In this document: positions 499 through 57,265 of the stretch, piece after piece
Position numbering within the stretch: position 1 is the first letter of the stretch
How the letters are laid out: every line of letters begins with the position of its first letter
From: Candidatus Aenigmatarchaeota archaeon
GTDB taxonomy: Archaea > Aenigmatarchaeota > Aenigmatarchaeia > GW2011-AR5 > JACRAC01
NCBI GenBank assembly: GCA_016187395.1
Contig: JACPJV010000009.1
Location: 1-63,114, forward strand
Direction of reading: 5' to 3'
Length of the DNA: 63,114 nt
Position numbers and translations under genes: made by a program
Notes under the pieces: generated by a model
Databases searched by the model: none
Seen by the model: only the letters and a program-made list of their open reading frames with translations
What the model was told of the DNA's origin: nothing

Positions 499-1476
499 TC
501 ACATATTCCAGATCCTATCCGGCTTCTCGGCGGTTTTCAGCTGACCGAAGATTTCTATGAAGTTTTCGGTGCTGGTGAACTGGGACAGAACATTCAATGC
601 AAAGCCGCCGTAGACTGTTTTGACTTCCTGATAGAGGCGCGACCAAGTGCCTAGCGAGAATGCATTGTCCACGATTGCAATCTTCTTCACGTTCTTCAAT
701 GCATCAGCAACCTCTGCGTCAGGGAACGGCCGCATCATGCGCAGCGACAGCAGACCTACCTTTTCGTTCTGCTTTTCTCTCAAAAAACGCACTGCAAGCT
801 TTGCGTTGCTTGTTGCTGATCCATAAGATACAAAAGCGAGCTCTGCGTCATCCAGATGATATCGTTCTACTAAATGCAGGTGCGATTTGGTCTTCTTTTT
901 CCAGTCTGCAGAAAATTCGTGCATCAAAGAATGGGCATTCTTGAGCGCTTTGTGCTGCTGTGCCAAGCCTTCAGTGTCGTGCCGCTCCAGGAGCCTGTGC
1001 CTCTTGTCAATGCTCAATTCTCCGGCAGCATTCCTCACGGTCATGTGACCCACAAGCTCTACGGATTCGAATGTCTGGCGAAGAACGTCGTCAATCACGA
1101 TGCAGGAAGGCATGAGGACTTTCCTGTCCTGTCCTACCGCATATGCGGCGATCACGCTTTCAAAAGCCTCCTGTGCGCTGGCGGGAGCTATGCATAGGGA
1201 ATAATTATGAATCCTGCGGCTCGTGCAGACAACAGGCAGGCGACGGGATGACATGTCCTGGAAGCCTGGCGGATCCTTGAGAAGGACACGCTTTCCTGAA
1301 AGGCATCTGGCAACAGCCGCGCTTACGCCAGCTTCTTTCTGAAGATCTAAAAATTCAGGTTCATATGTTTTTATCTGAGGCATAATTCCTTCCCCTGGAG
1401 AAATCCCTACCAATGCATCTGCCTGGGAAAAGAGTGCTGCACTGACAGCAGCCTGAAAGCTGTTCAAAAAATGCAT
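499..1476 (-). CDS. 2-oxoacid:ferredoxin oxidoreductase alpha-subunit-like protein (divergent)
   Basis: 325 aa. The C-terminal half (VSYGSATSNAKLAVRFLREKQNEKVGLLSLRMMRPFPDAEV..KKIAIVDN) looks like POR/KOR alpha domain II. The N-terminal half is only weakly alpha-like. It follows gamma- and delta-like genes on the same strand. Confidence 0.55.
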   Translation of the reverse strand: MHFLNSFQAAVSAALFSQADALVGISPGEGIMPQIKTYEPEFLDLQKEAGVSAAVARCLSGKRVLLKDPPGFQDMSSRRLPVVCTSRRIHNYSLCIAPASAQEAFESVIAAYAVGQDRKVLMPSCIVIDDVLRQTFESVELVGHMTVRNAAGELSIDKRHRLLERHDTEGLAQQHKALKNAHSLMHEFSADWKKKTKSHLHLVERYHLDDAELAFVSYGSATSNAKLAVRFLREKQNEKVGLLSLRMMRPFPDAEVADALKNVKKIAIVDNAFSLGTWSRLYQEVKTVYGGFALNVLSQFTSTENFIEIFGQLKTAEKPDRIWNM

Positions 1477-50430: not shown

Positions 50431-50506
50431 AATGCTATTTGAACCTGCAAGCTTAAATAACTATCTTTATAAGATATATCTGATAATAATACAGTAGGTG
50501 GTGAAA

Positions 50507-52813
50507 ATGGCCGAAGATAAAAACCATGTGGAAGAGGAGACGATAGGAATCAGGGGCATGCACTGCGCGTCCTGTGTTCTGAAAATAGAGAAGGCGCTCA
50601 AGAAGCAAAGCGGCGTAAAGGATGCGAGCGTAAACCTGCCGATGGAGACGGCTTATGTGAAATATGATACTGAAAAAACAGATTTAGAAAGGATAAAGGA
50701 GGCGGTGAGGAAGCTCGGTTACAAAGTTGAAGAAGAGCATACAATGCGCAATGATATGGACAGCCACGAAAATCATGAAGACGGCAAGCACGAGCATGAC
50801 ACTGCTGAAGGCCTGAAAAGAAAATTTTATGTTGGTGCCATTCTCAGCGCGATAATCTTCCTCGGAAGCTTTCCTGAGCTGTTTCCGTTTGCAGGTATCC
50901 TTGGCAACCCTGTTCTGCTGCTGATACTCGTCATACCAGTGCAGTTCTGGGTGGGCTGGCAGTTTTACGCGGGCGCGTGGGCTGCGGCAAGGGCAAAAAC
51001 AACAGATATGAACACCCTAATTGCCGTAGGCACTTCAGCGGCATTCTTCTACAGCGCTGCTGTTGTTCTGTTTCCGGAATTCCTTGGCTCGCAGGGAGCG
51101 CTGTACTTTGACACGGCAGCCGTGATAGTGACACTCATCATATTAGGCAGATATCTTGAGGCAATAACAAAGGGACGCGCATCAGAGGCGATAAAGAAGC
51201 TGATGGGGTTGCAGGCAAAGACAGCAATAGTAATCAGGGACGGAAAGGAAGTGGAAATTAACCTGGACGATGTAGTTGCTGGCGATATCATAATCGTGAA
51301 GCCCGGGGGGAAAATACCTGTAGACGGAATTGTCATAGGTGGCTCTTCGACGGTGGACGAGAGCATGATAACAGGCGAATCTATTCCTGTAGAAAAAAGA
51401 AAGGGTTCGCAGGCGATAGGAGCAACGATAAACAAGCACGGCCTGCTGAAAATCAGGGCGACAAAGGTCGGGAAAGAGATGATGCTGTCGCAGATAATAA
51501 AGTTGGTCGAAGGCGCGCTAGGCTCAAAGGCGCCGCTCCAGAGGCTGGCCGACAAGGTATCTTCGTATTTTGTGCCGGCTGTTATTCTTATTGCATTAGC
51601 ATCCTTTGCGGTATGGTATGCTGCGGGCGCTATGATACTTGCAGGAAGCCCGTTTCTTTCAGGATTAGCATCAGGGCCATTCCTGTTTTCCTTTGTGATA
51701 CTCATCTCAATACTCATCGTGGCATGCCCGTGCGCGCTCGGCCTTGCCACGCCTACGGCAATAATGATGGGAACAGGGCTTGGAGCGAAAAATGGAATAC
51801 TTATCAAAGGCGCGGAGCATCTGGAAATGGCGCACAAGATTGACGCAGTAATTTTTGACAAGACAGGCACTCTTACAAAAGGCGAGCCGGAAGTAACGGA
51901 TATCATCTCTGCCGGGAAGATGAAGAAAAAAGATATTCTTAGGATAGCTGCGATAGTGGAAAAGGGTTCAGAGCACGCGCTTGGCGAGGCTATAATAAAT
52001 GAGGCAAAGAAGCTGAAAATGCATATTCCTGATGCGAGGAACTTCAAGGCAATAACAGGGAAGGGCGTTTCTGCGACATACAAGGGAAAGAAAATCCTGC
52101 TAGGCAACAGGTCTCTGATGAAGGAAAACAAGATTGCTGCTGACAAATTTGAGCAGCAGCTTCAAAAACTGGAAAACGAGGGGAAAACAGCGATGCTGGT
52201 GGCTTATGGAAAAGAAGTCATAGGAATAATAGCTGTCGCAGATACGCTGAAGGAAAATTCAGCAGAAGCTGTAAAACAACTGCATAAAATGGGCAAGAAG
52301 GTTATAATGATAACAGGTGACAACGAGCGGACAGCGAAGGCGGTAGCAAAAAAGGTCGGGATAGACGATGTGCTTGCAGAGGTGTTGCCTGGCGACAAGG
52401 CATTGGAGATTAAAAAACTGCAGAAAAAAGGCCACAAAGTCGCGATGGTTGGTGATGGAATTAATGATTCGCCTGCGCTTGCGCAGGCAGACCTTGGGAT
52501 AGCAATAGGATCCGGAACTGACATAGCTTTGGAAACAGGAGGCATAGTACTGATAAAGGATGATTTGCGCGACGTTGTTACTTCCATTGACATAAGCCGC
52601 TACACGGTCAGGAAGATAAGACAGAATCTCTTTTGGGCTTTTATCTACAACATAGCTGCCATCCCGATTGCAGCTGGCGTGCTTTATCCCTTTATAGGCT
52701 TTTTGCTCAACCCTATGATTGCGGCAGGCGCGATGGCTTTTTCATCAGTATCTGTTGTAGGGAATTCGCTGCTGATGAAGAGGTACAGGACGAGGATGAA
52801 AGGAAAAAAGTAA
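50507..52813 (+). CDS. copA: copper-translocating P1B-type ATPase
   Basis: [11 protein letters not shown] domain, CPC in [19 protein letters not shown], and [10 protein letters not shown]. Confidence 0.95.
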
Positions 52814-54008: not shown

Positions 54009-54278
54009 ATGGCAAGAAAAACAGAGGATGAAGAAAATTTAGAAGATGACAGCAAAACCGGGTGGCATGCAAGCAGACAAAGAGAAAGCAGCGTAAGCAC
54101 GGTTCTGATTGTGCTGCTGGCTGTGCTGGTGCTATTCTCTGCAGCGCAGGCTGTGCAATTGGCAGAGATAAGGAGCGAAGGGTTGCCTTTGACAGGAAAC
54201 GTTGCAGCGCCGCAGCAGCAGGCGCAAGTGCCACAAAGCCTGCAGAATGATCTCCCTGAAATGCAGGGTGGTTGCTGA
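54009..54278 (+). CDS. single-pass mini-protein ending in MQGGC
   Basis: GTGAGGTGA SD lies 5 nt before ATG 54009. TM, then LTGNVAAPQQQ, ending in LPEMQGGC*. This resembles the head and tail of 53369..53986. Confidence 0.5.
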   Translation: MARKTEDEENLEDDSKTGWHASRQRESSVSTVLIVLLAVLVLFSAAQAVQLAEIRSEGLPLTGNVAAPQQQAQVPQSLQNDLPEMQGGC

Positions 54279-54336
54279 TGTGTTTTGTTTTAATTTTGTA
54301 TCATCTTCAGAGGGAAATTTGGAAAGGAGGTGTTGT

Positions 54337-54462
54337 ATGAAAAGATGCTTAGAAACGCGCGGAAAGGGTGAGAGAGAAATGAAGGTAAAGATGTGTAGCA
54401 TGGCTGGCGAATGCAGATGCGGCAATGATGACTGCTGCTCACGGAAGGGTGAAAAGGAATAA
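54337..54462 (+). CDS. 41-aa Cys-rich micropeptide
   Basis: GGAGGTG lies 4 nt before the ATG. Sequence MKRCLETRGKGEREMKVKMCSMAGECRCGNDDCCSRKGEKE*. Confidence 0.45.
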   Translation: MKRCLETRGKGEREMKVKMCSMAGECRCGNDDCCSRKGEKE

Positions 54463-54484
54463 CATACATTTACGAGGTGCTATT

Positions 54485-55045
54485 ATGATAAAAACAAAAA
54501 GAATTTTTCTGATGATCATAGGCTTTTTCACTTTAATTTCTCTTTCAATACCTGCATTTGCGCACTGCCCGCTGTGCACGGCTGCGACAGGAGCGGTTGT
54601 CGCTGGCGCGCGGGTTGCGGGAATAGACGACGCGGTCGTAGGCACGTTCATAGGCGCTTTTATTGTATCAACGGGATTTTGGACAACCAGGATAATCAAC
54701 AAAACATTCAATAAAAAATTGCTCACTGCGGCTCGTTATCATAAATTGCAAAACATTTTCAATCCCTACATGCTTTCAGCTGTGTTTGCTGTTATGACGA
54801 TAGCGAGTTTTTATGTTTCAGGATTGCTGGGCGCGATGCCTGAATACACATTTATCTTCGGGATGGAAAGGCTGCTGTTTGGGATTATCATGGGAAGCAT
54901 TTTGAGTGCGGCATCATTCAGATTCCATTCACTGGCCAGAAGCATGCATCAGAACAGGAACTACTTTCCGATGCAGGGGATTATAATGCCTTTGCTTGTT
55001 TTGGCTGCAGCTGATTTTGGACTGTATGTGGTGGGTTTGATATGA
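54485..55045 (+). CDS. polytopic membrane protein with HCPLC after the signal-like segment
   Basis: GAGGTG lies 5 nt before the ATG. FFTLISLSIPAFAHCPLCTAATGAVVAG, followed by several TM helices. Confidence 0.55.
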   Translation: MIKTKRIFLMIIGFFTLISLSIPAFAHCPLCTAATGAVVAGARVAGIDDAVVGTFIGAFIVSTGFWTTRIINKTFNKKLLTAARYHKLQNIFNPYMLSAVFAVMTIASFYVSGLLGAMPEYTFIFGMERLLFGIIMGSILSAASFRFHSLARSMHQNRNYFPMQGIIMPLLVLAAADFGLYVVGLI

Positions 55046-55476
55046 GAGGAAAAAATTCAGGAGGTGATTTATCGAAGGCGCAGGATCTTGTGATGGCCAC
55101 GGTGAATCTCATAGCGCTGGAGGAGCATCTGGCATTCACCGCACTGAAGACAGGCGAGAGGGATTTTTACGAGATTGCAAGAGGCGTGCGTAAAATCCGG
55201 ATACAATGCCTGCGTGAACTTATAGGCGAGCCAAAGGGCGAACTATGGTGCTCGTCCAAGCACACGCTTTCGGCAATGATGCGGATGTTTGAGGTAGCCA
55301 GCAAGGAGGAAGGCGAGAAGTGCAAATTTTATCTGGATTTCGCCTTTGACCTGTACAAGCTCTTTTGGCTGTTCAGGGAGGTTGCGAGGGGACAAAATGA
55401 CGAGCTTCGCTCGTCCATACGCCACCGCGGTGATGCGGATGAAATTAAAGCTGGAAAAACTGAAGTCAAAGCTTGA
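55042..55476 (+). CDS. soluble helical hypothetical protein
   Basis: ATGA overlap with the upstream gene. 144 aa, no motif recognised. Confidence 0.5.
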   Translation: MRGKNSGGDLSKAQDLVMATVNLIALEEHLAFTALKTGERDFYEIARGVRKIRIQCLRELIGEPKGELWCSSKHTLSAMMRMFEVASKEEGEKCKFYLDFAFDLYKLFWLFREVARGQNDELRSSIRHRGDADEIKAGKTEVKA

Positions 55477-55523
55477 CAAGGCTCTGAAAGATGCATTAGC
55501 CTGCTGCTTTGAGGAGTGAGAAT

Positions 55524-57223: not shown

Positions 57224-57265
57224 ATGAAGAAAAAACAAAAGAAAAAGCAGCATGGATGCTGCTAG
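57224..57265 (+). CDS. 13-aa Lys-rich micropeptide ending in GCC
   Basis: GGGGGTGA lies 4 nt before the ATG. Sequence MKKKQKKKQHGCC*. Confidence 0.3.
   Translation: MKKKQKKKQHGCC

Follow-up and report, generated by a model that had tools for sequence, protein, structure and literature searches.

A candidate cysteine-rich micropeptide gene in the copper-handling operon of a DPANN archaeon

Does the uncalled gap between two membrane-protein genes of an archaeal copper-handling operon hold a gene of its own? The question is raised by a contig of a Candidatus Aenigmatarchaeota archaeon (JACPJV010000009.1, positions 1 to 63,114 of the forward strand), and this whole stretch of 63,114 nt is the window referred to throughout. 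The genome (~0.98 Mb in 42 contigs, ~80% complete) is the sole representative of its genus. The operon encodes a copper-type P1B ATPase (CopA, 50498..52813), a membrane-tethered MarR/DUF7343 protein, a CEYCCG...MVGGC protein and, after the latter, an 89-aa single-pass protein ending in ...LPEMQGGC (the MQGGC gene, 54009..54278, + strand). A gap of 206 nt then precedes the HCPLC gene (54485..55045, + strand), whose product is a 186-aa polytopic membrane protein with a signal-like N-terminus ending in AHCPLC. After it comes a gene for a 144-aa protein (55042..55476), and a PCYCGC-domain protein and further small proteins rich in Cys, His or Met are also members of the operon; a PadR regulator with a TRASH-like tail is encoded divergently. 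With a copper ATPase and so many Cys-motif proteins as company, a small Cys-rich product fits the operon context.

Both flanking genes have recognizable relatives. Homologues of the MQGGC gene ending in MVGGC stand at the equivalent place in L002, L023, L024, L046, L053, L055, L057 and L058, and distant homologues of the HCPLC protein come from 'Candidatus Aenigmarchaeota archaeon'. A second small gene ending in ...PTMVGGC (MEGNLVLAV...MVGGC) was also observed at L050:~967-1160 (+), and likewise in L051 and L052; in L050 it sits in a 287-nt stretch left uncalled by the source's gene caller.

The gap holds the focal ORF, which runs on the + strand from ATG 54337 to TAA 54460-54462 (54337..54462) and encodes the 41-aa peptide MKRCLETRGKGEREMKVKMCSMAGECRCGNDDCCSRKGEKE. 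The original prediction, that an unannotated frame lies here within an operon, is borne out by the sequence and by the position between the MQGGC and HCPLC genes. Exact-protein look-ups of three operon proteins for strain variants returned a single identical Logan contig, on which a separate gene call had likewise left the 206-nt gap empty; the DNA is also present in run SRR12113424. The peptide contains six Cys (positions 4, 20, 26, 28, 33 and 34), five of them inside the 15 residues 20-34, exactly as had been counted. The cluster has the spacing C-x5-C-x-C-x4-CC and includes C-x-C and CC motifs; the peptide (Cys 6/41) is highly charged and has zero aromatic residues, no signal peptide and no membrane segment. 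AlphaFold2 on the single focal sequence gave a pLDDT of 52, a value to be expected of a metallothionein-like peptide and of a non-protein alike.

Which start codon would be used is a separate matter. In the mechanical ORF list the frame is present only as a TTG-started ORF of 86 aa (54202..54462), whose first 77 nt fall within the preceding gene (54009..54278) and which is implausible, so the contention that the list conceals the peptide inside a longer frame stands. An alternative in-frame start at Met15 would give an ORF of 27 aa with five Cys (54379..54462, + strand), and a GGTG at 54367-54370 stands 8 nt before its ATG 54379, inside the 5-8 nt that are normal for this genome.

The gap is organized around overlapping stop and start codons. 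The MQGGC gene ends in a TGA (54276-78) whose last base is shared with an ATG at 54278 (TGATG), and this ATG opens a 20-aa bridging ORF, MCFVLILYHLQREIWKGGVV (54278..54340, + strand). A GGTG at 54267-54270, inside the ...QGGC codons and 7 nt before ATG 54278, can serve as its Shine-Dalgarno (SD) motif. The TGA of the bridging ORF (54338-40) overlaps the focal ATG in turn as ATGA, and 22 nt separate the focal stop from the HCPLC start at ATG 54485, which has an SD of its own (GAGGTG, 54474..54479, + strand, spacer 5 nt). The gap is therefore fully tiled by ORFs at termination-reinitiation distance. Equal tiling arose in 7% of dinucleotide shuffles, and in 3% when the tiling used at most two ORFs. 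In most near relatives the gap is absent altogether, and in several (e.g. L058) the HCPLC gene starts at a homologous TGATG, with intergene distances of -1 to +1; the gap in the window thus looks like a later insertion or divergence 3' of the ancestral start.

A T-rich tract, TTTTGTTTTAATTTT (54283..54297, + strand), just 3' of the upstream stop, could judging by its letters be a putative archaeal oligo-T terminator and/or a TATA-like element. Further downstream, an inverted repeat allows a 21-nt, 81%-complementary long-range pairing of 54369-54389 with 54527-54547, the former a purine-rich stretch midway through the focal ORF and the latter pyrimidine-rich early HCPLC codons. The fold of 54320-54560 (241 nt) is marginal, with z = -1.82 and 6 of 200 shuffles folding as well, and the helix may be a candidate for translational coupling. 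As a separate observation on these junctions, the ...GGC stop of MVGGC-type genes overlaps the next ATG as TGCTGATG in the window (54276-54280) and in L058, L023, L002 and L026. The GGTGG within the Val/Gln-Gly-Gly codons can at the same time act as SD for the gene that follows, and the conserved GGC tail may therefore be constrained both as protein and as ribosome-binding site.

The motif in front of the focal ATG was evaluated against the start sites of the whole genome. GGAGGTG at 54326..54332 (+ strand), followed by the spacer TTGT, does lie 4 nt 5' of ATG 54337 as originally described. The 3' end of the genome's 16S rRNA reads GGATCACCTCT, so that GAGGTG pairs with it perfectly and the ideal SD for this genome is (A)GAGGTGATC. 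GGTG, AGGTG or GAGGTG accumulate before ~19% of long ORFs with a sharp spacer distribution, and GAGGTG is the strongest SD class in the genome. Genome-wide counts at spacers of 4, 5, 6, 7 and 8 nt are 8, 63, 37, 17 and 18 for GGTG and 1, 14, 8, 3 and 4 for GAGGTG. The focal spacer of 4 is at background level (1 of 35 GAGGTG genes), the genome norm being 5-8, and the recognizable small genes (ribosomal proteins, RNA-polymerase subunits) also have spacers of 5-8. Judged as an SD-led gene, with GGTG or GAGGTG 5-8 nt before the start, the focal ORF has the motif, but at 4 nt from ATG 54337. Two more small ORFs in the genome list combine a 4-nt spacer with several Cys, neither of them protein-like in appearance. 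Intergenic GAGGTG occurs 67 times genome-wide against ~66 expected by chance, and ~40% of the intergenic copies precede long genes. The description of the SD as strong calls for a qualification: while the motif belongs to the genome's best class, a spacer of 4 nt falls roughly one base short of what nearly all real genes here have. The SD argument for the focal ORF is real but modest, because the spacer is atypical and intergenic GAGGTG is at chance level.

Two features of the rRNA gene itself were seen along the way. The 3' end GGATCACCTCT is one C short of the usual CCTCC, in keeping with the GAGGTG-type SD of this genome. On genome contig C29 (6945-9916, L059), the archaeal SSU rRNA model, of 1478 positions, matches across 2972 nt, a span that implies a 16S gene with ~1.5 kb of insertions or introns.

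Coding signals within the frame were assessed by Cys content and by hexamer usage. The focal ORF contains seven TG[TC] triplets, six of which fall in frame 0, the other two forward frames having 1 and 0. Stop-free mononucleotide shuffles contained a mean of 0.73 Cys and none of 20,000 reached six, so the in-frame Cys count is far above the expectation from composition; among mechanical ATG-ORFs of 35-50 aa, ~1% genome-wide have at least six. A hexamer coding model trained on 621 long ORFs gave the focal frame +0.107 per codon. None of the other five frames scores as high, and the value coincides with the average for genuine windows having at least four Cys; it is also the 7th percentile of true coding windows, is exceeded by 14% of stop-free non-coding windows and corresponds to a likelihood ratio of ~0.5. 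The outcome varies with the null, and for a Cys-rich 41-mer the score is uninformative. Whether the locus holds more than chance would supply can be answered partly in the affirmative: the Cys excess and the gap tiling speak for it, the SD spacing against.

The original prediction proposed conservation of the frame and of the Cys spacing in syntenic loci as a check. Neither was found in related loci or databases. A word-indexed search of 5.8 billion proteins gave zero matches to the focal peptide, as did Pfam, NCBIfam and the PDB. Searching 1.84 billion representative proteins with phmmer gave no homologue; its single match, P0001, is spurious, matching an Ig-like domain strand that recurs along a surface protein of 1356 aa. 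When 70 genomes of the order were searched in six frames, only weak matches at chance level turned up (L012-L014), of which those in L012 and L013 lie out of frame inside unrelated genes and that in L014 (E = 0.76) has a TGA within the match. The peptide is present in 0 of ~50 inspected syntenic loci. This negative is weak, since the closest HCPLC homologue found anywhere is just 54% identical on the adjacent protein. A metagenome scan with the HCPLC protein yielded one distant locus only. Of the two observations that the original prediction had named as counting against it, an unconserved frame in relatives and a missing ribosome footprint, the former is thus what we see, at low power with a best relative of 54%.

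The position itself has a richer history than the peptide. With the HCPLC gene as the conserved anchor, the slot just before it in relatives repeatedly holds other small Cys-rich ORFs. In at least nine loci (L030, L035, L036, L038-L042 and L044, the members of alignment A2) it is occupied by a TRASH/YHS-like family of ~50 aa with the form MFGFGKPKC-x2-C-x-M-...-GKKFC-x3-CK-...-SCH/CCH, in which the C-terminal Cys-His is invariant. A2-type proteins are also encoded in L027 and L034. Their genes adjoin the HCPLC gene upstream or sit one gene away, and these loci, whose slot protein weakly resembles the TRASH, YHS and zf-FCS domains, belong to another family of the class. The slot protein of L039 is a 48-aa YHS protein (E = 5e-12).

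Other occupants are unannotated micro-ORFs. Directly before the HCPLC gene of L040 lies an orphan of 38 aa with seven Cys, MKRKLL...CCCSGRKDKQDCACCN (L040:2080-2196, - strand). In L046, the relative with the highest-scoring HCPLC protein, a 26-aa ORF starting at TGATG and ending in ...HCHCC (MLFKKKDKAKEKEQTAESEPQHCHCC, L046:1408-1488, + strand) takes up the 92 nt that separate the MVGGC gene from the HCPLC gene. L073 has an 18-aa ORF, MKKEKKKQEKDQRDCCCR, with ...DCCCR, which ends 5 nt before the HCPLC gene (minus strand, stored coordinates 1266-1322). Over the operon gaps of the relatives, Cys-rich micro-ORFs occur in 31 of 124 cases in sense orientation versus 12 of 126 in antisense. A side observation concerns their composition: the micro-ORFs of L040, L046 and L073 are rich in Lys and Glu with a terminal Cys cluster, like MKKKQKKKQHGCC at 57224 of the window. 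The 86-nt gap before HCPLC in L047 (1415-1500), 3' of a DUF411 gene, is a different case, without an ORF; it carries repeated words of the type AACTGATT-N-AATCAGCT, resembling a putative regulator binding site.

Several direct relationships between the focal gap and these slots were considered and rejected. A degenerate TRASH-SCH gene is contradicted by an hhalign probability of 0.15% versus alignment A2, and homology with the L040 orphan by a shuffle p of 0.31. At the DNA level the window gap shares with the L046 gap just a 9-nt match, ACTGCTGCT (p = 0.31). In the HCPLC tree, which leaves their relation open, the window and L046 do not come out as sisters, so the two gaps need not be homologous. 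The slot ORFs would accordingly lend the focal gene support by analogy rather than by homology. A bolder proposal, which we consider rather unlikely, is that the slot is an evolutionary hot spot at which ultra-small archaea would repeatedly gain unrelated, fast-evolving or de novo cytoplasmic Cys-tail peptides, acting as interchangeable thiol/metal acceptors for a membrane cysteine relay. The TRASH-SCH proteins, the Lys/Glu-rich peptides with ...CC(C) tails and the metallothionein-like focal orphan would, equally speculatively, be its products, and the focal ORF a recently born metallopeptide gene.

Taken together, intrinsic evidence (SD, in-frame Cys, tiling) and contextual evidence (a metal operon, a recurrently filled slot) point to translation and to a thiolate metal-binding role, as far as sequence can indicate either. 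Our leading interpretation, held tentatively and at somewhat less than an even chance, is that the focal frame is a real, translated, lineage-specific gene for a thiolate metal-binding micropeptide within a copper/thiol operon of a DPANN (Aenigmarchaeota-like) archaeon. Ribosomes finishing the ...MQGGC gene would restart at the overlapping ATG 54278, read the 20-codon bridge and terminate at the TGA that overlaps ATG 54337, there to restart with the aid of the GAGGTG-type SD; alternatively, they might restart at Met15 with its normally spaced GGTG. The product would be a soluble, highly charged cytoplasmic peptide whose C-x5-C-x-C-x4-CC thiolates could bind Cu(I) or another soft metal. It might act as a metallothionein-like buffer, or, in the cytoplasm, as a hand-off partner for the HCPLC protein and CopA.

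A plainer account, doubtful to us although a real contender, is that the 206 nt are a non-functional spacer, produced by insertion or divergence at the HCPLC 5' end that stranded the ancestral TGATG; chance, or the decay of an older gene for a small Cys-protein, would then account for the open frame together with its SD-like heptamer and Cys codons. The peptide is, after all, an orphan in every search, most near relatives are gapless with HCPLC starting at TGATG, the SD spacing is off the norm, intergenic GAGGTG is at chance (67 vs ~66, with ~40% of copies before long genes) and the hexamer score does not discriminate; a scan of ~250,000 windows will moreover turn up many chance ORFs with an SD and several Cys. 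Such a spacer would have to combine a number of coincidences, however: the in-frame Cys excess, the ATGA/TGATG tiling, a further in-frame ATG with an SD at normal distance, and small Cys ORFs that keep recurring in the slot of relatives. Of the ~190-aa or TRASH genes no leftover similarity was detected apart from an 8-residue match. That match (AGNCECGH / AGECRCGN) was all that tblastn found with five ~190-aa proteins against 54150-54520; a remnant of the ~190-aa 'CCGF...NCECGHH' gene that occupies the same position in L003-L006 and L008 was rejected as unsupported, there being no collinear pieces. A repeat or mobile element was rejected too, with no other copy of the gap in the genome and no flanking direct repeats.

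The tiling can also be read as the function itself. The micro-ORFs would then be translated solely as a coupling or regulatory uORF that ferries ribosomes over the spacer and keeps HCPLC translation tied to that of the MQGGC gene, perhaps through the opening of an mRNA helix; the peptide would be functionless. Overlapping stop/start pairs throughout the gap, the direct TGATG coupling of the flanking genes in relatives and the pairing of 54369-54389 with 54527-54547 (241-nt fold, z = -1.82) are all consistent with this, but six in-frame Cys are left unexplained, the HCPLC gene has a well-spaced GAGGTG of its own and the helix is only marginally significant, and we regard a purely coupling function as unlikely. 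Far less probable still is a gap that encodes no peptide and instead a small RNA (e.g. a C/D-box sRNA) or a structured regulatory RNA. C/D-box sRNAs are recognized by a C box (RUGAUGA), a D box (CUGA), internal D' and C' boxes and guides of ~12 nt. Weak Rfam C/D-box matches at 54419-54461 are driven by the C-box-like AATGATGA, but the best of them reaches 18.3 bits against a gathering threshold of 45 bits (sR1 and others), and inspection found no CUGA D or D' box at the needed spacing. The gap has no other copy in the genome, its fold has z = +0.6 and nothing in it attains an Rfam gathering threshold; on the last two grounds a structured RNA or riboswitch was rejected.

An unannotated ORF elsewhere in the operon deserves mention in its own right. 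At 55439-55516 of the window (+ strand), overlapping the end of the 144-aa gene and preceded by a GGTG 6 nt upstream, lies a 26-aa ORF, MKLKLEKLKSKLDKALKDALACCFEE. At least 15 related loci have a separate micro-ORF of this type, a Lys-rich amphipathic helix with a CC-[FKL]-[EN] tail, after the 144-aa homologue, with examples such as MKIRLKQIIRKIIKSIEECCKNG, MKSKISETMKEVLECCFE and MKDMLKCCLEK; in L003 the micro-ORF is fused in frame to the 144-aa homologue. By its sequence pattern it looks like a genuinely conserved family of micro-proteins, or else like a frameshift site that has been conserved; gene callers miss it.

Should the focal gene be real, it would exemplify gene-sized novelty in a ~1-Mb DPANN genome and supply a cytoplasmic part to a copper/thiol gene cluster that is uncharacterised yet widespread among DPANN archaea. 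Gene callers systematically overlook Cys-tail micro-ORFs in such clusters, one family of which (55439..55516) is clearly conserved, and the metal-handling protein inventories of uncultivated archaea are consequently incomplete. If it is not real, the locus illustrates that an SD plus a Cys-rich ORF is by itself weak evidence where intergenic GAGGTG is at chance level.

How does the candidate compare with known small Cys proteins? The CC-tail micro-ORF (55439..55516) is likewise unannotated, belongs to the same operon, has CC near its C-terminus and starts by SD or overlap coupling. That family, defined by 10-30 aa with a Lys-rich amphipathic helix and then a CC-[FKL]-[EN]-x C-terminus after the 144-aa gene, is nevertheless conserved in at least 15 loci as ...K-x-[LIVMA]-x-x-CC-[FKL]-[EN], whereas the focal peptide is unalignable with it and conserved nowhere; it stands at another position, its CC is followed by SRKGEKE, and no amphipathic helix precedes it. 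Free-standing archaeal TRASH/YHS proteins and the A2 family share with it the slot, the size, solubility and a Lys-rich tail ending in Cys. In contrast to these, the focal peptide has no C-x2-C...(F)C-x3-C treble-clef pattern and no profile similarity, and under the TRASH/YHS definitions (PF08394, PF04945; C-x2-C-x19-22-C-x3-C) it contains no C-x2-C and gave no Pfam match. The C(P)XCG zinc-finger micro-proteins of Haloferax volcanii are archaeal proteins of <70 aa with Cys pairs, many of them missed by annotation (PMC11241148), and in these respects resemble the focal peptide. The latter has only CRCG (C-x-C-G) and CC, and no C-x-x-C-G, and so falls outside their pattern.

A functional metallothionein is a small protein of high Cys content, with C-x-C, CC or C-x-x-C motifs and few aromatic residues, that binds several metals in thiolate clusters. 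The focal peptide has this composition, its metal binding being predicted only. In hmmscan against Pfam-A (E <= 0.1), neither the 41-aa peptide nor a 47-aa extended frame matched any family, including prokaryotic metallothionein of the SmtA type (Metallothio_Pro, PF02069). The mycobacterial copper metallothionein MymT, of 4.9 kDa, is encoded by a small non-annotated Cys-rich ORF that is needed for copper resistance (PMC7558416). The focal ORF differs from MymT and from SmtA/BmtA in lacking any sequence relationship to them, in being archaeal, in its 6 Cys per 41 residues and in being embedded by translational coupling. What it would share with MymT and the bacterial metallothioneins is a small, initially unannotated, Cys-rich cytoplasmic ORF with a copper link, C-x-C and CC motifs and, as for MymT-type proteins, folding expected solely upon metal binding (PMC7558416). 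By this analogy MymT is the nearest known analogue in kind, and the focal gene, if real, would be an archaeal counterpart, without sequence relatives, of the unannotated copper metallothioneins that MymT exemplifies.
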